A stretch of DNA of 64,000 nucleotides, taken from contig VXSK01000030.1 in assembly GCA_009838035.1 (NCBI GenBank), positions 8,683 to 72,682 of the forward strand, written 5' to 3'. This document shows, in pieces, positions 54,000 to 63,969 of this stretch (its first letter is position 1; every line of letters starts with the position of its first letter). A program made the position numbers and the translations under genes. This DNA is from Gammaproteobacteria bacterium. Lineage in GTDB: Bacteria > Pseudomonadota > Gammaproteobacteria > Steroidobacterales > Foliamicaceae. A model generated the notes under the pieces. The model ran no database searches and was not told where the DNA came from. It was given only the letters and a program-made list of their open reading frames with translations.

Positions 54000-55013
54000 C
54001 TGAATAGCCAGGCACACACCAGGGAGGTCGTCCTCCGACCCGCGGACAATGGCGCGCTGGCCAACCTGTGCGGGGAATTCGACAGGCACCTGCGCCAGAT
54101 CGAACAGGGCCTGGACGTGCGGATATCAAGCCGGGGCAACCGGTTCCGCGTGCGCGGCTCTAAACAAGCCATCAGCGCGGGCGCCATGGCGCTGACCGAG
54201 CTGTATCGCATGGCCGCGGAGGAATCGCTGGACGCGGCACGCATCCAGGCCTGCCTGGCGGAATGCGCCGAAGGCGTCGGCAGCGATCCGGCGACCAACG
54301 GCAGCGGCGCCGATGGCGATCTGCCCGGCAGCCGGGACCGCGGCGAGGACGAACAACCGGTGGTCGTCACGCCCCGGATCCGCGTTCGTCCGCGCGGCGC
54401 CAATCAGCGCCGCTACGTGAAGGAGATTCGTTCGCGCGATCTGACCTTTGGCATCGGGCCCGCCGGCACCGGCAAAACCTGGCTGGCGGTGGCCTGCGCG
54501 CTTGAATCGCACAGCGCCGGACACGTGCAGCGCATCGTTCTGGTGCGTCCGGCCGTGGAGGCCGGCGAGCGGCTGGGTTTCCTGCCCGGCGACCTGGCCA
54601 GCAAGGTCGATCCCTACCTGCGGCCGGTTTACGATGCGCTCTACGCGATGCTGGGGCCGGAACGGGTCGCCCGCTGGCTGGAACGCGGCGTGATCGAAGT
54701 GGCGCCGCTGGCCTACATGCGCGGCCGATCGCTCAACAGCAGCTTTGTCATACTGGACGAAGGACAGAACACCACGCCGGAGCAGATGAAGATGTTCCTG
54801 ACCCGGTTCGGCGCCGATTCCCGCGCCGTCGTCACGGGGGACATCACGCAGGTGGACCTGCCCTCCGATCGCGAGAGCGGCATGCGCCACGCGCTGAGGA
54901 TACTCAAGTCCGTCCCGGGTATTGCGACCGTCTATTTCACCGCGCGCGACGTGGTCCGTCACGCTCTGGTGAAGAAAATTCTCGAGGCCTACGGCGCGAC
55001 GGAAAAGTCATGA
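54000..55013 (+). CDS. ybeZ: PhoH-like ATPase (YbeZ)
   Basis: Walker A GPAGTGKT and ILDEGQN. Homology to E. coli YbeZ begins at ...TREVVLRPADN, upstream of the first ATG (54117). The best in-frame candidate start is CTG at 54000 with GAGG 11 nt upstream, so the start is uncertain. Confidence 0.8.
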   Translation: MNSQAHTREVVLRPADNGALANLCGEFDRHLRQIEQGLDVRISSRGNRFRVRGSKQAISAGAMALTELYRMAAEESLDAARIQACLAECAEGVGSDPATNGSGADGDLPGSRDRGEDEQPVVVTPRIRVRPRGANQRRYVKEIRSRDLTFGIGPAGTGKTWLAVACALESHSAGHVQRIVLVRPAVEAGERLGFLPGDLASKVDPYLRPVYDALYAMLGPERVARWLERGVIEVAPLAYMRGRSLNSSFVILDEGQNTTPEQMKMFLTRFGADSRAVVTGDITQVDLPSDRESGMRHALRILKSVPGIATVYFTARDVVRHALVKKILEAYGATEKS

Positions 55014-55462
55014 TTGAGGTTGCGATCCAGGACGCCTCGGACCTTGTACCGGAAGCCGAGCTGTCCGGCGCGGGGATACGGGAACTGGTGCGGAACAGCC
55101 TGACGCACTTCGCGCGCGAGGGCGCGGTGACGGTGCGGCTGGTCGAGGAAGCCGAGAGCCGCGAACTGAACCGGAGGTGGCGCGGCGTCGACCGGCCCAC
55201 CAACGTGCTGGCCTTTCCGTCGGACCGCGAACTGGGCGAAATCGGCGACATCGTGATCTGCATCCCGCTGGTGCGCTCGGAATCCGGCGGCCGCGGCGCC
55301 ACGCCGGCCGCGCACCTGGCCCACCTCGTCGTGCACGGATCGCTGCACCTGGCGGGGCTTGACCACCACGATCCGGAGCAGGCCCGGGCGATGGAAACGC
55401 TCGAATCGGAACTGCTGACGCAGGCCGGATGGCCGGACCCCTGGGCGGTGGAGCGCGAGTGA
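55010..55462 (+). CDS. ybeY: rRNA maturation endoribonuclease YbeY
   Basis: 150 aa. Zn motif HLVVHGSLHLAGLDH. ATGA overlap with ybeZ. Confidence 0.93.
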   Translation: MIEVAIQDASDLVPEAELSGAGIRELVRNSLTHFAREGAVTVRLVEEAESRELNRRWRGVDRPTNVLAFPSDRELGEIGDIVICIPLVRSESGGRGATPAAHLAHLVVHGSLHLAGLDHHDPEQARAMETLESELLTQAGWPDPWAVERE

Positions 55463-56265
55463 GCGGCGCCCGGGAATTCCTGGGGCGGCTTGCAGGACGC
55501 GGGCGGCTCACCCGCGATGGTTTGCTGGGACTGCTGGCGGATCTGGCGGGCGTCAAGGAGATCACGCCGGGCGAGAAGGCGATGATAGAAGGCGTCTTGG
55601 AGGTCTCCCGGCGCGAAGTCCACGAAGTGATGGTGCAGCGTTCCAGCATGGTGGTCCTGCGCCTGGACGACAGCCGCGAGAAGCTCCTGTCCACGATCAT
55701 CAGTTCCGGCCATTCGCGTTTCCCGGTCATCGGCGAGAACCGCGACGAGGTCGTCGGGAGTCTGCTGGCCAAGGACGTGCTGCGCGCCCTTACGGATTCG
55801 CCGGAAGACACGCTGGAAATCAGGCCATTGCTAAGGCCCGTCACGCTGATTCCCGAAACCAAGCGCCTGGACGCCCTGCTGGACGAGTTTCTGCGCGGGC
55901 GCAATCATCTCGCCGTGGTCGTGGACGAATACGGCGGGACCGCCGGGCTACTCACGATTGAAGACGTCCTGGAGCAGATCGTGGGCGAGATCGGCGACGA
56001 ACACGATCCCGAGCAGGCGCCGGAACTGGTGCGGCAGGACGACGGCAGCTTCCTGGTCAGCGCCAAGATGCGCATCGAGGAGTTTGACGAGGAGATCGGC
56101 TCGGAGCTGGATACCGGCGAGTTCGATACGGTGGGCGGGCTGGTCATTCACCGCCTGGGCCGATTGCCCCGGCGTGGCGACTCCGTGGAAGCTGGAGGAT
56201 GGCGCTTCGAGGTCGTCTCAGCCGACCGGCGGAGGGTCAAGCGGCTCCGCGTCAGCCCGATCTGA
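55429..56265 (+). CDS. corC: CorC/HlyC family Mg/Co efflux-associated protein (CBS pair + CorC_HlyC domain)
   Basis: MIEGVLEVSRREVHEVMVQRSSMV..., HSRFPVIGENRDEVVG, AVVVDEYGGTAGLLTIEDVLEQIVGEI. The start is either ATG 55429 or GTG 55459, the latter forming a GTGA overlap with the ybeY stop. Confidence 0.9.
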   Translation: MAGPLGGGARVSGAREFLGRLAGRGRLTRDGLLGLLADLAGVKEITPGEKAMIEGVLEVSRREVHEVMVQRSSMVVLRLDDSREKLLSTIISSGHSRFPVIGENRDEVVGSLLAKDVLRALTDSPEDTLEIRPLLRPVTLIPETKRLDALLDEFLRGRNHLAVVVDEYGGTAGLLTIEDVLEQIVGEIGDEHDPEQAPELVRQDDGSFLVSAKMRIEEFDEEIGSELDTGEFDTVGGLVIHRLGRLPRRGDSVEAGGWRFEVVSADRRRVKRLRVSPI

Positions 56266-56299: not shown

Positions 56300-56399
56300 G
56301 CACGTCCCTCGCGGCATCCCGCCCTTCCACCCGGGAAACGAGGACGTTCCGTCCTCTAAAAACCTCGGGTGGAAGGGCGGGATGCCGCGAGGGACGTGC
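56300..56399. repeat. perfect 34-bp inverted repeat element (copy C, related to A/B core)
   Basis: GCACGTCCCTCGCGGCATCCCGCCCTTCCACCCG (56300-56333) and its exact reverse complement (56366-56399). The 32-nt spacer itself contains GAGGAC-gttcc-GTCCTC. It lies between the convergent corC and cytochrome c genes. Confidence 0.9.
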
Positions 56400-56407
56400 C
56401 CTCCCTT

Positions 56408-56851
56408 CTAGAGCGTATTCAGGTAGGCGATAAGGGCCCGGCGGAGTTCTTCCCCGGGAAGACCCGCAAAGCTCATGCTCGTGCCGGGAACCATTTCCGC
56501 CGGCCGCTGCAGCCAAAGGTCCAGGTTTTCCTCGCTCCAGACGAATTCCTGGGCCCGCAAGGCATCGGAATAGACCGATCCCTCCGCGCTCGCCACCGGC
56601 CGATCGACGATTCCCGCAAGGTGCGGACCGATCTTATCGCCGGGATCCGCCTCCGTTGCGTGGCACGCCTGACACAGAATGTAAAGGCGTTTGCCCTGCG
56701 CCAGCAGCCGGGGGTCCGGAGTTTCGTCGGCCGCGGCGTCCTGTCGCGCGGGGACATCCTGATCGGCCAGCGACAGGGCGGCGGTTCCGCAGAGCAGGGC
56801 CGCGCACAGAGTGCCTGCCGCGATCGGCCCCGTGTTGCCCGGAATTCTCAT
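56408..56851 (-). CDS. periplasmic monohaem class I cytochrome c (c2-like)
   Basis: 147 aa from the ATG at 56851. Signal peptide, haem motif CQACH, Met-ligand region PGTSMSFAG. The start overlaps the upstream stop (ATGA). The rest of ORF 56408..58033 was rejected. Confidence 0.88.
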   Translation of the reverse strand: MRIPGNTGPIAAGTLCAALLCGTAALSLADQDVPARQDAAADETPDPRLLAQGKRLYILCQACHATEADPGDKIGPHLAGIVDRPVASAEGSVYSDALRAQEFVWSEENLDLWLQRPAEMVPGTSMSFAGLPGEELRRALIAYLNTL

Positions 56852-58335
56852 GCGCGCTGAAGAATTTCGAATGCCGCCCGCTCGCCGCTTTCCAGCGCGG
56901 CCTCCATCCCGAAGTCCATGCGCCGGGTGTGTTCTCCCGCGAAATGCAGGCGGTGGTGCGGCACGATCATTTCCCTGGCGAACCTGGAGATCTGGCCGGG
57001 ACCGAACAAGTGTCGGCACCCCTGTATCAGGGGATTCTTGCGCCAGCCGTACAGGTCCACGAAGCGCATCCTGCCCTTCGTCGAGGGCCGGATCCGGGCG
57101 ATTTCCGATTCGATCAGGGCGAGGGCCTGGTCGTCGGGCATCTGGTCGATCCGCGCTGCGGAAGGGCCGGTGAAAATGACCGAACACCGGTGCGTGTCCT
57201 CTCCGGGCAGCTTGTCCAGCACCACCAGCGTCTGAATGGTTTCGTCGGTGAAAAACGACGGCTCCAGCCCGTCGTCTTCCCAGTACGGTTCCTCCACGAC
57301 CCCCCAGGCGCGCGTCGTGCCGCGGTAGCCCAGCGTCAGCACCGCTTCGGCCTGGCGACCCGAGAATCCCGGCGAAACCGAGATATTGCGCAAGGTCGTG
57401 AACGGCATGGCGGAGACCACGAAATCGGCGCTGTAGCGGCTGCCGTCCAGGCAGCGGATTTCCGCGTCCGACCCGGACATGTCGATTTCCGCGACCACCT
57501 TGCCCAGCCGGACCCGGTCGCCCAGCGCGGCGGCCATCGCTTCCGGCAGTCTCGACGTGCCGCCCTCGATCGTTCTGACCGGAAAGGTTTCCTCGCCTTC
57601 CTCGCGCGTGGCCGCCAGACCGAACGGCGTGTCCGCGGCCTGGGTCTGCGTACGTCCGAAATTCGCGTCGAACAGGGTCCGCGTTCGCTCCTGCATCATG
57701 CCGAGGCTGGAGGTCACGCGGAGATCCAGGGGGACCCCGGCCAGCCGCAGGGCAGCCTCCGAGACGCCGTTGTTCAGGAACAGTTCGCGCATCGAGATGT
57801 CGTAGGCAGCGAATTCGGGGGACAGCCAGTCGTCCAGGTTTATCAGCGGGTTCAGCCGCGACAACAGGCCCATGCCGACCATGAGCGGCGGAAGTTCGCG
57901 CTCGTTGTCGGCCATCCTGTTGACCGGGGAATCGGCCCAGTCCCCGGACCTCACCCAGGTTCCTTCCACGTAGTTGGACATCGGCAGCAGGCTGCGGATG
58001 TCCGGGAGGAGCCTGATGTCGAGCCGGGAGCACAGGTCGATGGCCCGCGCATACGAACGGCCCACCTCGCTGGCGCCGTATTCCGGGCGCGTTTCCACGT
58101 CATCGGCCGTGTGGGCGCGTCCGCCGACGCGGTCCGACCCCTCCAGCAGGATCACGTCGATCCCGAAATCCGAAAGAAGCAGCGCGCAATTGAGCCCGGA
58201 CAGGCCGCCTCCGATCACGACGGCCGTGGTCTTTTCGGCGGCGAATCCGGCCGCGGGCTTCAGCAACGGGTAGGAAAGAGAGAGGGCGGAAAGAGAGAGC
58301 GCTCCCTTGAGGACCTGTCGTCTTTTTACACTCAT
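56848..58335 (-). CDS. Tat-exported flavin-containing amine oxidase family oxidoreductase
   Basis: 495 aa. Twin-arginine signal MSVKRRQVLKGALSLSALS. FAD fold AVVIGGGLSGLNCALLL...LLEGSDRVGGRAHT. The start overlaps the lnt stop (ATGA). Confidence 0.88.
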   Translation of the reverse strand: MSVKRRQVLKGALSLSALSLSYPLLKPAAGFAAEKTTAVVIGGGLSGLNCALLLSDFGIDVILLEGSDRVGGRAHTADDVETRPEYGASEVGRSYARAIDLCSRLDIRLLPDIRSLLPMSNYVEGTWVRSGDWADSPVNRMADNERELPPLMVGMGLLSRLNPLINLDDWLSPEFAAYDISMRELFLNNGVSEAALRLAGVPLDLRVTSSLGMMQERTRTLFDANFGRTQTQAADTPFGLAATREEGEETFPVRTIEGGTSRLPEAMAAALGDRVRLGKVVAEIDMSGSDAEIRCLDGSRYSADFVVSAMPFTTLRNISVSPGFSGRQAEAVLTLGYRGTTRAWGVVEEPYWEDDGLEPSFFTDETIQTLVVLDKLPGEDTHRCSVIFTGPSAARIDQMPDDQALALIESEIARIRPSTKGRMRFVDLYGWRKNPLIQGCRHLFGPGQISRFAREMIVPHHRLHFAGEHTRRMDFGMEAALESGERAAFEILQRA

Positions 58336-59921
58336 TCGCGCTCCTCCGAAGCCGTGAACGCCGCCCGCCCAACCTTCGGCCGGGAGCCCCCCTCGCGGAT
58401 TCTAACTGCTGCCGGAAGCGCGATTCCGAGCAAGATGCACAGGACAACCACGGGCCATTCTCCGTAGCGCACGTAGGGCGTCGCGCCCACCAGCCGCGGT
58501 ACGCTTACGTCCAGGAAACCGGGTCCGTACTTCGGGAGCCGGTCGATGATGCGGCCGCCGGGATCGACCGCCGCGGTAATGCCGGTGCCGGTTGCGCGCA
58601 GCAGATAGCGCCCGGTTTCCATGGCCCGCACGCGCGCCATGTCCAGATGCTGCTCGAGGGCGACGGTGTCGCCGAACCAGCCGTCGTTGCTGACGTTGAT
58701 GAGAACCTCCGCCGTCGGCACCCATCTTCGCTGCTCCGAACCGAAAGCCGCCTCGTAACAGATGCTCACGCCGCACACCGCCTCACCGGCCGTGAGCGGC
58801 GCCTGGCCGCTCGGTCCCGGCACGAGGTCGCTGGCGGGAAGGTTCATGCCCAGCAGCCAGTCCCTTATCGCATCGGGCACGGGAAAGAACTCCCCGAAGG
58901 GCACCAGGTGGTGCTTGTGGTAGGTCCCCTGGCCGTCGCCCAGCACGATCAGGGAATTGTATCGGCCGGCGTCGGTTTGGGTGAGAATCCCAAGCGCAAG
59001 GGCGCCCCGACGCGCGCGCAACAGACGGTCCATATCATCCAGATACTCGCGGACGAAGTCCTGCGTCTTGGGGACCGCGACTTCCGGCCAGATGATCAGC
59101 GCCGGGTCCGCAGAGGCGCCCGCCACGGGTTGTCCGAAGCTCAGCCGTTCGTAGCGGTCAAGGGTCGGCACAAACTCCTCTTCCAGCCACTTCCTCTCCT
59201 GGGGAATGCCGCCCTGCACGAGCCTCGCTTGCAGTTGGCCCCGCGATTGGCCATCCTGCGCCGGAAGCGCAATCTGCCCCAGCCCCGCGGCGCCGCCAAG
59301 CAGCAGGAGCAGGCCCACAGCCCGCGTTGCCGGGCCTGGTGCGATGCGCCAGACAAGCAGACATGCGCCAGCCAGCCATGCCGTCGTCAGTCCCACCAGG
59401 TACATTCCGCCCAGGGAAGCCAGCATTGCCGGGATCCGGCCGGCGAATACGGGGGCCGTGAGGTATCCGGCGCTCAACCACGGGAATCCGGTGAAAACCC
59501 ACCCCCTGAGCCACTCGGTCAGCACCAGGACGCAGGGCAGCACAAAAAGCAGAGCCATCCAGGGCCGTTTCGGCTGCATGCGCGCCGCCCAGTAGCCGCC
59601 CAGCGCGTACCAGCATCCCATCACGGCCGCGAGCAGTACGACCAGCGCGATGGCCAGCGCAACCGGCCCCCCGTTGACGATGCGCACGCTGTGATAAATC
59701 CAGTAGCAGCCGGCCGAGAAGGCGCACAGCCCGAAGGCGAAGCTTCCGGCCGCGGCCGCCCTCGGGTTCCTGAAGGCCCGCTCGCCCGACCACAGCGACA
59801 GGAGCAGGATCAATCCGGTCATGCCGATGAACCACCGGACCAGCGTCCACTCCGGGTAGAAGCAGAACGCCGCCGCCCACAACAGTCCGGCCAACAAGCC
59901 TGTGGGAATCGTCCTGCTCAT
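58332..59921 (-). CDS. lnt: apolipoprotein N-acyltransferase
   Basis: ATG at 59921 (MSRTIPTGLLAGLLWAAAF...). The N-terminal half is multi-TM. The C-terminal half is a CN-hydrolase domain with ...WPE...K...LVPFGEF...VSICYEAAF. Confidence 0.9.
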   Translation of the reverse strand: MSRTIPTGLLAGLLWAAAFCFYPEWTLVRWFIGMTGLILLLSLWSGERAFRNPRAAAAGSFAFGLCAFSAGCYWIYHSVRIVNGGPVALAIALVVLLAAVMGCWYALGGYWAARMQPKRPWMALLFVLPCVLVLTEWLRGWVFTGFPWLSAGYLTAPVFAGRIPAMLASLGGMYLVGLTTAWLAGACLLVWRIAPGPATRAVGLLLLLGGAAGLGQIALPAQDGQSRGQLQARLVQGGIPQERKWLEEEFVPTLDRYERLSFGQPVAGASADPALIIWPEVAVPKTQDFVREYLDDMDRLLRARRGALALGILTQTDAGRYNSLIVLGDGQGTYHKHHLVPFGEFFPVPDAIRDWLLGMNLPASDLVPGPSGQAPLTAGEAVCGVSICYEAAFGSEQRRWVPTAEVLINVSNDGWFGDTVALEQHLDMARVRAMETGRYLLRATGTGITAAVDPGGRIIDRLPKYGPGFLDVSVPRLVGATPYVRYGEWPVVVLCILLGIALPAAVRIREGGSRPKVGRAAFTASEERE

Positions 59922-59989: not shown

Positions 59990-60415
59990 ATGTTGAAGAA
60001 AATCTGCGGCTTGTATCTCTTTGCGGTTGCCGTACTGGTGGCCGTCCACACGGTTGTCGAGCCCTTGTACCATGCATCGGAACCCGGCCAGCCCTACAGT
60101 CCATTCTGGACCATAGTGAACCCGTTGACCGCGCTGGCCATTGTATTGGGCACGGTTTTCAGCTACACGCGCAAGACGGGCGCGGGAGGCGAAACGGTCA
60201 CTCGCGAGTTCCTGGTGGCCAACACGCTGTTCTACGGATTCCTGTTCGTGGGAATCATGTTTTTCTGGAACTGGTTCAATCTGATGAACCCCGCCTTCAC
60301 CGCCATAGGAGACGACACGGTTTCGCTGGTATGGATCGTCGTCGACGCCGGCGTGCCTCTGCTGGCGGGCGTCACCGGGATTCACTTGCTGCGGAGCGGC
60401 GCCGAAGGCGGATAG
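59990..60415 (+). CDS. small integral membrane protein (about 4 TM), function unknown
   Basis: 141 aa. Hydrophobic segments LYLFAVAVLVAVH, LTALAIVLGTVF, LFYGFLFVGIMFFW, LVWIVVDAGVPLLAGV. The stop abuts the next gene. Confidence 0.6.
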   Translation: MLKKICGLYLFAVAVLVAVHTVVEPLYHASEPGQPYSPFWTIVNPLTALAIVLGTVFSYTRKTGAGGETVTREFLVANTLFYGFLFVGIMFFWNWFNLMNPAFTAIGDDTVSLVWIVVDAGVPLLAGVTGIHLLRSGAEGG

Positions 60416-60417
60416 CC

Positions 60418-61191
60418 GTGCGGGCCCTTGCGCGCGCGGCGGCAATCGGACTGCTGCTTCCCGCCTGCGCTCCATCAGGCCATGCGTTGGAGTGGAGCGA
60501 TACCGAACTGCACCTGCAGTACGGGCAGCTCGACGTTCCTTCCTTCGCCGGCGGCGGCAAGGCGAAACATCTGATCACCACCGGGCAGCACGCGCACGGC
60601 TGGAAATACGGCGACAACTTCGTCTTTCTGGACATGCTTGACTCGCGGGAGTCCGGCTTCCAGGATTTCGATCTTTACGGCGAGTGGTACTCCAATTTCA
60701 GCCTGTCGAAGATTGCGGGCAGAAAAATCGGCGGCGGCCTCATCGCGGACATCGGCCTGGTCTTCGGAATCAACTGGGCCGACGACGCCAACGTCGTCAA
60801 GTACCTTCCGGGAATCCGCCTGTCGCTGGACCTGAACGGATTCGCGTTCGCCAACCTGGACATCACCGGGTACATCGACGACAGCAAGGGCGTCGCATCG
60901 GGCGGCGCGCCAAGAGAAAGCGATTCGTTCATGGTGGACCTGAGTTTCGCGCGTCCTTTCACGCTGGGCGGACAGGATTTCAGCCTGGAGGGCCACATCG
61001 AATACATTGGCAGCCGGGAGAACCGGTTCGGCGACAATGTCGACGGCTGGCTGCTTGCGCAGCCTCAACTACGCTGGAGGGTCACTGAACGATTATGGAT
61101 GGGAATCGAATATCAATACTGGATGAACAAGCTCGGCGACGGGGCGACCGACGAGAACACCGTGCAGGCCCTGCTGGTATGGCAGTTCTAG
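60418..61191 (+). CDS. Tsx/OmpK-like outer-membrane channel protein
   Basis: GTG at 60418, 2 nt after the upstream stop. Signal peptide VRALARAAAIGLLLPACA. Alternating beta-strand pattern with LHLQYGQ..., DFDLYGEWYSNFSL, and C-terminal ...ALLVWQF. Confidence 0.6.
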   Translation: MRALARAAAIGLLLPACAPSGHALEWSDTELHLQYGQLDVPSFAGGGKAKHLITTGQHAHGWKYGDNFVFLDMLDSRESGFQDFDLYGEWYSNFSLSKIAGRKIGGGLIADIGLVFGINWADDANVVKYLPGIRLSLDLNGFAFANLDITGYIDDSKGVASGGAPRESDSFMVDLSFARPFTLGGQDFSLEGHIEYIGSRENRFGDNVDGWLLAQPQLRWRVTERLWMGIEYQYWMNKLGDGATDENTVQALLVWQF

Positions 61192-62099
61192 CCGCAACGG
61201 CGACAATACTGCTGGGGCTGGCCGGTCTTCCGGCGCAGGCCGCGGAGTCCGAAGCGCCGCGGGTCTTTCAGGACTGCGATGTCTGTCCCGTGATGGTCGA
61301 GGTGCCTCCGGGAGAGTTCATCATGGGCGCGGAGGGCGGGGAGGAAGGCCGTCCGGACGGTCCGCCGCACGAGGTCAGCATCGCCACAGCCTTCGCGATC
61401 GGACGGTTTGAAGTCACCAACCGGGAATTCGCCGCATTCGTGGACGCGACCGGATACGAGACCGCACCGCCCTGCGCGGTTCGGGTCGGCGACGAATGGT
61501 TGCTGCATCCCGAGGCGCTCTGGACCGACCTCAAGACCGGCCAGGAGTGGGAAGCGGACCACCCGGTGGCCTGCGTCAATTGGCTGGACGCGCGCGCCTA
61601 CGTCGCCTGGCTGGCGGAGACGAGCGGCCAGCCGTACCGGCTGCCCAGCGAAGCGGAATGGGAGTACGCGGCGCGCGGCGCCGTGAGCGGCGATTTTCCC
61701 TGGGGATCGGAACCGGACGAGGCGTGCGGCCAGGCCAATGTGTATGACTCGAGCGCGCAAGCCATGCATGGCTACAGTTGGCAGCCCGCGCTTTGCGATG
61801 ACGGTTTTCCGATGCTGGCTCCAGTCGGACGCCTGCAACCGAACAGGTTCGGCCTGCACGACGTGGCCGGCAACCTCTGGGAGTGGGTAGAGGACTGCTA
61901 CGTAGCGCCCTATCCGGCCGACATTCCCACGGACGGCAGCGCATACGGCCCGCCGCCCGGCCAGTGCGATCGGCGCAGCGTTCGCGGCGGCAGCTGGACT
62001 TCGCGGATCAGCCGCCAGCGGCTCGCGTTCCGCGGCCGCGATCCCGAGGACCTGCGCTACTCGATCTTCGGCTTCCGCGTCGCCCGCTCCCTCCACTGA
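61179..62099 (+). CDS. periplasmic FGE-sulfatase-fold (SUMF1/EgtB/PvdO family) protein, copy 1
   Basis: ATG at 61179; the ORF track starts at 61095. Signal peptide. Motifs FQDCDVCPVMVEVPPGEFIMG, EVTNREF, HPVACVNWLDARAYVAWL, YRLPSEAEWEYAARG, GNLWEWVEDC, RGGSW. Confidence 0.85.
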   Translation: MAVLAATATILLGLAGLPAQAAESEAPRVFQDCDVCPVMVEVPPGEFIMGAEGGEEGRPDGPPHEVSIATAFAIGRFEVTNREFAAFVDATGYETAPPCAVRVGDEWLLHPEALWTDLKTGQEWEADHPVACVNWLDARAYVAWLAETSGQPYRLPSEAEWEYAARGAVSGDFPWGSEPDEACGQANVYDSSAQAMHGYSWQPALCDDGFPMLAPVGRLQPNRFGLHDVAGNLWEWVEDCYVAPYPADIPTDGSAYGPPPGQCDRRSVRGGSWTSRISRQRLAFRGRDPEDLRYSIFGFRVARSLH

Positions 62100-62120
62100 C
62101 CCCTGGGCGAGCGCGCTAGA

Positions 62121-63056
62121 ATGCGCGGCATGAACAGATATGCACCAGCAATGGCCGTGCTGATCGGCCTCACGTTCGCAGCGTCGCCCGCGGCCGCCGA
62201 GGACGCGCAGCCCGAAACCTTCCGCGATTGCGAGCAGTGTCCCGAGATGGTCGTGGTTCCGGGCGGCAGCTTCGTCATGGGAAGCGAGGAAGCCGTGAGC
62301 GAACGCCCGATGGGCCCGCCGCACGAAGTGACGATTGCCGGGCCCTTCGCGCTGGGCAAGTACGAAATCACCAACCGGCAATACCGGGAATTCGTGGAGG
62401 CGACCGGCCACGAGATGTCGAAAGGATGTCGCGGCAACATCGATCAGGAGTGGAAAAACGACCCCGAAGCGCACTGGACCGATTTGCGGCTGGGGCAGGA
62501 GTCCGACCCCGAGCATCCGGTGGCCTGCGTGAGCTGGCTGGATGCCCGGGCCTATCTCGACTGGTTGTCCGGGATCAGCGGCCAGGACTATCGTCTGCCC
62601 AGTGAAGCGGAGTGGGAGTACGCGGCGCGCGCCGGCGCCGGCGACTGGTACTACTGGGGGGAAGACCCCGACGAGGGCTGCAAGCACGCCAACATGTACG
62701 ACACGAGCGCGCACGCCGTGCACGACTTCATCTGGCCCTGGATCGACTGCGACGACGGCCATACGACCCTGGCGCCGGTCGGCAGTTTCCAGCCGAACCC
62801 GTTCGGTCTGCATGACATGACCGGCAATCTCTGGGAATGGGTCGAGGATTGCTACGAAGTGCTTTATCCGGAAGACACGCCGACCGACGGTTCGGCCTAC
62901 GGTCCGCCGCCCGGCCAGTGCGAGAACCGCAGCGTGCGGGGCGGCAGCTGGCTGACCAACCCCGACTGGCAGCGCACCACGTTCCGCGGTCGCGATCCCG
63001 AAGAGGTGCGCTACAGCTTCTTCGGCTTCCGCGTCGCCCGCTCCCTGACGGAATAA
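62121..63056 (+). CDS. periplasmic FGE-sulfatase-fold protein, copy 2
   Basis: 311 aa with the same motif set (FRDCEQCPEMVVVPGGSFVMG, HPVACVSWLDARAYLDWL, YRLPSEAEWEYAARAG, RGGSW). The start could also be ATG 62130 or 62151. Confidence 0.85.
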   Translation: MRGMNRYAPAMAVLIGLTFAASPAAAEDAQPETFRDCEQCPEMVVVPGGSFVMGSEEAVSERPMGPPHEVTIAGPFALGKYEITNRQYREFVEATGHEMSKGCRGNIDQEWKNDPEAHWTDLRLGQESDPEHPVACVSWLDARAYLDWLSGISGQDYRLPSEAEWEYAARAGAGDWYYWGEDPDEGCKHANMYDTSAHAVHDFIWPWIDCDDGHTTLAPVGSFQPNPFGLHDMTGNLWEWVEDCYEVLYPEDTPTDGSAYGPPPGQCENRSVRGGSWLTNPDWQRTTFRGRDPEEVRYSFFGFRVARSLTE

Positions 63057-63060
63057 CACT

Positions 63061-63969
63061 TTGCGCCTTTTGTTCGCTGTGTTCGGCCTGGCGGCCGGGG
63101 CGATCGCTGCGGACGGCGTTCCGGAGGCCTCTTTCCGCGACTGCGACGGGTGTCCGGAGATGCTGGTCGTGCCGGGCGGGAATTTCGTGATGGGAGCGCA
63201 CGGCGGCGAGGAGGGCCGCCCGGAGGGACCGCCGCGCGAAATGCGCGTGGAACGCGATTTTGCGCTGGGCAGGTACGAAGTAACGAATGCCCAGTTCGAA
63301 GCTTTCGTCTCCGCCACGGGATACCAGGTGGAGAAAGGCTGTCGTGGAAAATTCGATGGCGAGTGGGAGAACCATCCGGAATCGAACTGGACCGACCTGA
63401 TGCTCGGGCAGGAACAGCGGCCGGATCATCCCGTAACCTGCGTCAGTTGGCTGGATGCGCGCGCCTACGTGGAATGGCTTGCGGAGATGAGCGGCCAGCC
63501 GTACCGCCTGCCCACCGAGGCGGAGTGGGAATACGCGGCGCGTGCCGGCGCCGTGGGCCGCTTCACTTGGGGCGACGACCCCGAGGCGGCATGCGCTTTT
63601 GCCAATGTGTATGACTCAAGCGCGGATCCTGTGCATGATTTCGGCTGGCAGGCGGCGGATTGCGACGACGGCTACCCGACTCTCGCACCGGTCGGCATGT
63701 ACAAACCGAACGCCTTCGGTCTGTACGACGTGGCGGGCAATGTCTGGGAATGGGTGGAAGACTGCTACGTCGAGCCCTATTCGGCGGAGTTGCCGACCGA
63801 CGGTTCGGCGCTTGACGTCCCGCCGGGCCAGTGCGAGCGGCGCGGCGTGCGCGGCGGCAGCTGGATTACGCGCCCGGACCGCCAGCGCCTCACGTTCCGC
63901 GGCCGCGACCCGGAGGACATCCACTACACCTTCTTCGGCCTGCGCGTCGCCCGCTCCCTGCCGGATTAG
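63061..63969 (+). CDS. periplasmic FGE-sulfatase-fold protein, copy 3
   Basis: 302 aa from a TTG start, with the same motif set (FRDCDGCPEMLVVPGGNFVMG, HPVTCVSWLDARAYVEWL, YRLPTEAEWEYAARAG, RGGSW). Confidence 0.82.
   Translation: MRLLFAVFGLAAGAIAADGVPEASFRDCDGCPEMLVVPGGNFVMGAHGGEEGRPEGPPREMRVERDFALGRYEVTNAQFEAFVSATGYQVEKGCRGKFDGEWENHPESNWTDLMLGQEQRPDHPVTCVSWLDARAYVEWLAEMSGQPYRLPTEAEWEYAARAGAVGRFTWGDDPEAACAFANVYDSSADPVHDFGWQAADCDDGYPTLAPVGMYKPNAFGLYDVAGNVWEWVEDCYVEPYSAELPTDGSALDVPPGQCERRGVRGGSWITRPDRQRLTFRGRDPEDIHYTFFGLRVARSLPD

Follow-up and report, generated by a model that had tools for sequence, protein, structure and literature searches.

A 64,000-nucleotide stretch of a gammaproteobacterial genome (assembly GCA_009838035.1, contig VXSK01000030.1, positions 8,683 to 72,682; hereafter the window) was analysed around three adjacent minus-strand genes. 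They encode an apolipoprotein N-acyltransferase (Lnt), an exported flavin amine oxidoreductase (FAO) and a cytochrome c, the last two of which are considered here as a likely respiratory amine dehydrogenase. The source genome is a 2.9-Mb draft with a GC content of 64%. The related records are sponge-associated gammaproteobacterial metagenome-assembled genomes, several of them named Candidatus Foliamicus. The features of the locus, in window coordinates, are the following.

58332-59921, minus strand: lnt, apolipoprotein N-acyltransferase, 529 amino acids, TIGR00546, with LNT_N and CN_hydrolase domains
58332-58335, minus strand: ATGA overlap of the lnt stop and the FAO start, seen in the sequence
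56848-58335, minus strand: flavin amine oxidoreductase (FAO), similar to monoamine oxidase (MAO), 495 amino acids, PF01593
58237-58335, minus strand: twin-arginine signal peptide of the FAO, residues 1-33 (KRRQVLKG, h-region, GFA/AE)
56848-56851, minus strand: ATGA overlap of the FAO stop and the cytochrome c start, seen in the sequence
56408-56851, minus strand: monohaem class I cytochrome c, 147 amino acids, with a Sec-type signal, PF00034
56660-56674, minus strand: haem-binding CQACH of the cytochrome c, residues 60-64, from the translation
56300-56399, no strand assigned: perfect hairpin of 100 nt, from RNA folding
55429-56265, plus strand: corC, end of the miaB-phoH-ybeY-corC block, an open reading frame

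The three genes stand head to tail without intergenic space, with lnt as the first gene of the unit. A previous examination of the same DNA (the sequence-only reading) had described three minus-strand genes joined by two ATGA stop/start overlaps, and both its coordinates and its features were confirmed from the sequence. The first gene was assigned by the TIGR00546 equivalog model with a score of 266.7 bits (cut-off 132.9), and its start at 59921 is consistent with the starts of its orthologues. The stretches WPE, YHKHHLVPFGE and ICYE are visible in the translation, as judged by eye and not from an alignment; we take them to resemble the contexts of the Glu/Lys/Cys triad of Escherichia coli Lnt. 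A phmmer search of the genome returned one match only, showing that lnt is present as a single copy.

Overlaps of the ATGA type are routine in themselves, and phoH and ybeY in the same window are joined in the same way (55010-55013). It is the conservation of the junctions that exceeds chance. Among nine related loci, the lnt/FAO junction is a 4-nt overlap in six, a gap of 19-20 nt in two and a 28-nt overlap in one. The FAO/cytochrome ATGA junction is kept across the genus in both of two paralogous copies of the pair, namely copy A, which is the one behind lnt, and copy B, which lies elsewhere in the genome. A scan for sigma-70 promoters inside the unit found no promoter-like site, a result of little power in a 64% GC genome. 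The three genes probably form one transcription unit. The hairpin separates the end of the cytochrome c gene from corC, which runs towards it. It has a folding free energy of -110 kcal/mol and a z-score of -15, and probably acts as a two-way terminator or as an element of the repetitive extragenic palindromic type.

The FAO matched PF01593 from end to end (residues 45-492, 1.5e-48). Its Rossmann motif GGGLSG occupies residues 42-47, directly after the leader. The N-terminus, MSVKRRQVLKG...GFA/AEK, was called a twin-arginine translocation (Tat) leader on the basis of its motif, and the RR pair was found in 85 of the 97 members of the family alignment; the signal proposed in the sequence-only reading was thereby borne out. 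The AlphaFold2 model of the protein has a mean predicted local distance difference test score (pLDDT) of 81, and residues 1-30 fall below 50.

The cytochrome c matched PF00034. It shows the features expected of class I, with one CxxCH motif near the mature N-terminus, a distal methionine and a domain of about 100 residues. The single CQACH is invariant in the alignment of its homologues, and the presumed axial ligand is Met126, within PGTSMSFAG. Among proteins of solved structure, the best matches were Paracoccus denitrificans c552, cytochrome cy and mitochondrial cytochrome c (2e-19 to 1e-17). The NCBIfam CycA model matches below its cut-off. The earlier description of a periplasmic cytochrome c with these two motifs thus agrees with the translation, the domain match and the class I relatives. 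A lipoprotein nature of the cytochrome, which would have linked it to Lnt, was considered and rejected: the two Cys residues of its signal peptide do not lie in a lipobox and are not conserved outside the genus.

The combination of a Tat leader with an adjacent cytochrome c gene is the published signature of cytochrome-c-dependent amine dehydrogenases, for which more than 100 FAO cases have been predicted (Akram et al. 2025, PMC12224317). About a dozen such enzymes kinetically prefer their own cytochrome c over O2, and the adjacent cytochrome gene is the better predictor of the two (PMC12224317). The principle is therefore already known, having been published between 2021 and 2025. The present pair carries all the features of this signature that can be read from sequence. 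Moreover, the genome encodes TatC, a Ccm-type haem-handling motif and one haem-copper oxidase. This sole oxidase is of the aa3 type and its subunit II has a CuA site, making it a cytochrome c oxidase. On these grounds, the pair is likely to be a periplasmic amine dehydrogenase that feeds the respiratory chain.

In the proposed cycle, the FAO would fold and take up FAD in the cytoplasm, and then be exported by the Tat system. Once in the periplasm it would oxidise the C-N bond of an amine, and the reduced flavin would give up its two electrons one at a time to the Sec-exported monohaem cytochrome c encoded by the adjacent gene. The latter would hand the electrons to the aa3-type cytochrome c oxidase, so that amine oxidation would yield respiratory energy instead of H2O2. 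That cytochrome c rather than O2 is the oxidant of the FAO is an inference from NicA2, Pnao and the enzymes of Akram et al. (2025), and the same applies to the covalent FAD discussed below and to the co-transcription. The genes neighbouring the FAO orthologues were searched for hints to the substrate; they vary from one taxon to another, and no substrate could be assigned from them.

The nearest functional precedents are NicA2/Pnao with CycN of Pseudomonas putida S16 and the enzymes of Akram et al. (2025), which share with the present pair the FAO fold, the Tat leader and a small cytochrome c that carries a Sec signal and is encoded in the operon (PMC12224317; PMC9396064). The predicted electron flow is also the same, from the substrate to FAD, then to two cytochrome c molecules and on to the respiratory chain. 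The suggestion in the sequence-only reading that the FAO and the adjacent cytochrome c may be a dehydrogenase of the NicA2/CycN kind is thus supported as a hypothesis. This holds for the shared logic and not for close kinship, as the rankings by profile and by structure favour MAO-A/B and putrescine oxidase. In the profile search against solved proteins, the best match was MAO-B (1.5e-50), followed by MAO-A, a bacterial MAO from Thermoanaerobacterales (8p84), L-amino acid oxidases (LAAOs) and putrescine oxidase (2yg3). Pnao (6e-25) and NicA2 (1.6e-23) came far below MAO-B. A Foldseek search with the model gave the same ranking, with NicA2 outside the top 50 structural matches. MAO-A/B, the bacterial MAO and putrescine oxidase are the best full-length matches, and the model superposed on MAO and putrescine oxidase over the full length with query-normalised TM-scores of 0.70-0.75 at 21-24% identity. 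A tblastn search of a plasmid collection (E 1e-8) returned Novosphingobium homologues and distant FAOs, none of which was annotated as 6HLNO, NctB or another nicotine enzyme. The setting differs from that of NicA2 too: the present pair lies inside an lnt operon, and the neighbouring genes that were examined included none recognisable as part of a nicotine pathway. As a separate observation, the first 147 positions of the FAO profile, which start at the Tat leader, matched PDB 7eme, a 447-residue 'NAD(P)/FAD-dependent oxidoreductase', at 3e-30; for the N-terminal half, this may be the nearest bacterial protein of known structure.

The active site distinguishes the FAO from both groups of relatives. 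In the hidden Markov model alignment, Cys440 (QGCRH) falls on Cys397 of MAO-B (SGGCY), the position that carries the 8-alpha-S-cysteinyl-FAD of the MAO enzymes, and a cysteine is present there in 88 of the 97 family members. The FAD is therefore probably bound covalently through Cys440 as in MAO. This would be a difference from NicA2, which binds FAD non-covalently. The lysine that faces the flavin N5, Lys296 in MAO-B and Lys340 in NicA2, is replaced by Arg342 (nt 57310-57312). Across the 97 members, this column holds R in 65, Q in 25, F in three, H in two, and N and K in one each; the replacement is family-wide among the Tat-exported FAOs, with or without an adjacent cytochrome c gene. Arg441 aligns with MAO-B Tyr398, and no residue stands opposite Tyr435, which adjoins the DFG of the FAO. 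Since neither the aromatic cage nor the N5 lysine is kept, the protein has a MAO-like fold without being a MAO orthologue. It also differs from MAO in being exported by Tat, in being paired with a cytochrome c and in the lack of a C-terminal membrane anchor.

The N5 lysine is nearly universal in FAOs, and its change to Glu was linked to the lowest O2 reactivity measured (PMC12224317). A link between the absence of this lysine in the present FAO and a low O2 reactivity is suggestive, and not proof. The family of Tat-exported, MAO-like FAOs could be considered an additional lineage of respiratory amine dehydrogenases that arose independently of the three published clades and is marked by covalent FAD and by Arg or Gln for the N5 lysine. 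We regard this extension as tentative and rather doubtful. The position relative to clades 1-3 is taken from the E-value and Foldseek rankings, which suggest a separate MAO-like lineage. If it held, family members without an adjacent cytochrome c may also be dehydrogenases.

Several observations weigh against the reading of the pair as a dehydrogenase. The distant FAO homologues that were fetched (up to 52% identity, mostly from Alphaproteobacteria) nearly always have a Tat leader and usually lack an adjacent cytochrome c. Three species of the genus (L029-L031) have lnt and the FAO without the cytochrome c, and the retention of the lnt-linked FAO in this clade after loss of the cytochrome indicates that the enzyme can persist without a private cytochrome. 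An arginine at the position of the N5 lysine might still support O2 activation. Finally, it is conceded in the literature that the preferred oxidant cannot be predicted from the sequence (PMC12224317). These points leave room for a true periplasmic oxidase, which would pass electrons to O2 to form H2O2, the cytochrome c being a minor acceptor or having another role, for instance feeding a peroxidase. Such an enzyme would be in keeping with the characterisation of the nearest solved relatives (MAO-A/B, putrescine oxidase and LAAO) as oxidases, and with the fast reaction with O2 of the Tat-only FAOs assayed by Akram et al. (PMC12224317). It is nevertheless judged unlikely. An adjacent cytochrome c gene was the strongest predictor of dehydrogenase activity in every case assayed, and here an ATGA-coupled cytochrome has been kept through a duplication and many speciations, with a tree congruent with that of the FAO. 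In addition, the O2-activating lysine is missing, and no peroxidase was seen among the neighbours scanned, although no search aimed at peroxidases was made. The respiratory dehydrogenase is thus the reading retained in what follows.

The order lnt-FAO-cytochrome c is not peculiar to this genome, a possibility that the sequence-only reading had named as damaging to its own proposal. As copy A, it was found in the genomes of at least 11 further species of the genus, and more public records also show it. Across those genomes the identity goes down to 72% for lnt and 80% for the FAO. The source genome carries eight paralogues of the FAO family, three of which have a cytochrome c gene adjacent or one gene away. 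Copy B, the nearest paralogue, lies on contig C13; it shares with copy A 76% identity in the FAO and 59% in the cytochrome c, and has the same ATGA coupling. It follows a Tat-signal DUF1838 protein, an MFS_2 transporter and a 689-residue protein with a double CN_hydrolase domain, a context kept in four other genomes. Outside the genus, the FAO orthologues from Halieaceae (62-63% identity) and Alteromonas lipolytica (57%) are followed immediately by the gene of a homologous cytochrome c, and lnt is absent from these loci. Nearby genes encode TonB-dependent receptors, a DUF1838 protein, a flavin monooxygenase, a protein of the Asp/Glu-racemase superfamily, a PuuE-like deacetylase and a serine hydrolase.

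The region C13:187000-207000 (locus L100) can be described as an 'amine oxidase island'. Three FAO paralogues are encoded there, as are the FAO-cytochrome c pair of copy B, the 689-residue hydrolase, two Tat proteins with DUF1838 and several transporters of the MFS type. The region also has genes for a Tat-signal peptidase of the M24 or creatinase-like type and a protein of the metallo-beta-lactamase fold. A third unit, at C31:16690-21383 (locus L102:6690-11383), consists of an FAO, a barrel protein of the CpeT/CpcT family (DUF1001) and a cytochrome c in tight packing, with a second FAO in divergent orientation.

In the maximum-likelihood tree of the FAO, the cytochrome-associated enzymes form one clade (support of 98 in the Shimodaira-Hasegawa-like approximate likelihood ratio test, SH-aLRT). 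Monophyly of the genus sequences has a support of 100, and the lnt-linked copies, taken together (97), have copy B (100) as their sister group. The cytochrome-less lineage of the genus sits on a long stem of 0.26 substitutions per site. The tree of the cytochrome c branches off Alteromonas, then Halieaceae, then the copies of the genus; it does not conflict with the FAO tree, and the order of copies A and B is not resolved in it. Wherever they are resolved, the two trees are congruent. The three clades of the genus seen in the FAO tree reappear in the lnt tree, where the species without the FAO group with the cytochrome-losing clade (SH-aLRT 89).

The long branch of the cytochrome-less FAO (clade 3: L029-L031, L112, L113) suggests a shifted or relaxed function. 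No remnant of a cytochrome gene was detected in the L029-L031 clade with a limit of E below 1e-4. Immediately after the FAO stop comes the end of a convergent open reading frame for 1036 residues, and the genomes of this clade still carry copy B. Relatives within clade 3 have lost the FAO altogether. Four species of the genus lack an FAO orthologue, and in three of them a Bcr-type MFS gene follows lnt without a gap. One of these transporters (L104:4654-5982) has an N-terminus nearly identical to that of an MFS protein encoded at C13:186174-187424 in the source genome, by a gene that sits about 8 kb from the FAO of copy B. This hints at an exchange between the slot at the lnt 3' end and the C13 island.

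The canonical gammaproteobacterial cluster has the order miaB-ybeZ(phoH)-ybeY-corC(ybeX)-lnt. All five genes are present in the window, the plus-strand block being preceded by ssb. Here, unlike in the canonical cluster, lnt is inverted, is convergent with corC and is the first gene of a separate unit that carries the FAO and the cytochrome c at its 3' side. The canonical co-directional arrangement is preserved in four other families of the order, and every member of the genus examined has lnt inverted. The hairpin at 56300-56399 falls exactly on the breakpoint of this inversion. The simplest account would involve three steps. First, lnt would have been inverted out of the miaB-phoH-ybeY-corC-lnt block in the ancestor of the genus. 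Then, one copy of a duplicated FAO-cytochrome pair would have become fixed at the lnt 3' end. Later, the cytochrome and afterwards the FAO would have been lost in one clade.

The tight coupling to lnt had been noted as unexpected in the sequence-only reading. The coupling is real, and it looks like the outcome of a lineage-specific operon fusion, not like a functional tie. The adjacency of lnt and the FAO was found only in this genus, and none of the outside loci, which come from diverse taxa, has lnt beside an FAO. Within the genus, the cargo at the lnt 3' end varies from the FAO with the cytochrome c, to the FAO alone, to the Bcr-type MFS gene. Such a fusion is the best reading of the position behind lnt, with expression probably driven by the lnt promoter. 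Among the data examined, nothing pointed to a biochemical link with the acylation or maturation of lipoproteins, and the synteny looks incidental.

One fact fits less well with an incidental position. Both FAO copies follow a gene with a CN_hydrolase domain, which is lnt for copy A and the gene of the 689-residue double nitrilase-family protein for copy B. Homologues of this hydrolase were found again beside an FAO in L077, a distant alphaproteobacterial locus. The recurrence was treated as a coincidence in the case of lnt and, for copy B, as a possible clue to the substrate, an amidase acting ahead of the amine oxidation.

Were the coupling to lnt functional, the pair would act on an amine of the envelope or of Lnt chemistry, for example a head-group product of phospholipid or lipoprotein turnover, and stoichiometric co-expression would have been selected. 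The stability of the arrangement since the ancestor of the genus, with its overlapping stop and start codons, would be accounted for in this way, and so would the position of copy B behind a gene from the catalytic superfamily to which the Lnt domain belongs and the recurrence of homologues of that gene next to an FAO in L077. The distribution argues in the opposite direction, since among the loci compared the adjacency is confined to the genus, members without the FAO hold an unrelated MFS transporter in the same slot, and one clade has lost the cytochrome, and part of it the FAO, yet has kept lnt. Furthermore, the surroundings of the orthologues from Halieaceae and Alteromonas are catabolic clusters that contain genes for TonB receptors, a flavin monooxygenase, hydrolases and DUF1838 proteins. 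A functional coupling is consequently held to be most improbable. Against it stands also the finding that lnt and the 689-residue hydrolase share no significant similarity beyond the superfamily; for the same reason, recombination between lnt and the copy B hydrolase gene was rejected.

A different role for the upstream gene was also evaluated, in which the nitrilase-superfamily protein would provide the substrate, an amidase freeing the amine that the FAO then oxidises. The lnt-linked copy would in that case derive by duplication from a hydrolase-FAO-cytochrome module and would have been placed behind lnt by chance or by illegitimate recombination. The conserved context of copy B in four other genomes and the association in L077 are in favour of this route, as are the best NCBIfam matches of the 689-residue protein, namely formamidase, N-carbamoylputrescine amidase and aliphatic amidase, all below cut-off. 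The compartments do not match, however: the hydrolase has no signal peptide and the FAO is exported. The orthologues in Halieaceae and Alteromonas do without this hydrolase, and no hydrolase remnant is detectable in or beside lnt. This substrate route is therefore considered very unlikely, and an operon fusion of lnt with a probable respiratory amine dehydrogenase remains the preferred interpretation of the locus.

On the other side of lnt, and only 68 bp away from it, a divergent gene encodes a 141-residue membrane protein without a Pfam match (59990-60415, plus strand). The next gene specifies a protein ending in LLVWQF, which is outer-membrane-like and also without a Pfam match (about 60560-61191, plus strand). 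Both are kept beside lnt, with identities of 96% and 77%, respectively, in L020 and of 81% and 49% in L024. Further on (61095-63969, plus strand), three tandem paralogues of the FGE-sulfatase or SUMF1-like type with signal-like N-termini were found, the first of them matching PF03781 at 4.9e-58. Homologues of these SUMF1-like genes flank lnt in L020, L024, L029, L112 and L113, all of the same genus.

The two features of note at this locus are the probable covalent FAD and the absence of the N5 lysine, the principle of a Tat-exported FAO with its cytochrome being already published. If confirmed, the pair would add a MAO-like branch, with a probable covalent flavin and no N5 lysine, to the cytochrome-c-dependent 'oxidases that are dehydrogenases'. 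It would also offer a test case for the residues that tune the reactivity of the flavin with O2, a question left open by the 2025 paper (PMC12224317). The linkage to lnt serves mainly as a caution that genes coupled tightly in translation to an essential gene do not necessarily share its function. Members of the FAO family are widespread among Gamma- and Alphaproteobacteria of marine and freshwater habitats. If the family were indeed a separate lineage of respiratory dehydrogenases, the copy in the lnt operon of the sponge symbionts would be constitutively expressed. The eight FAO paralogues of this small genome, three of them with a cytochrome c gene nearby, may point to a periplasmic oxidation of host-derived amines for energy.

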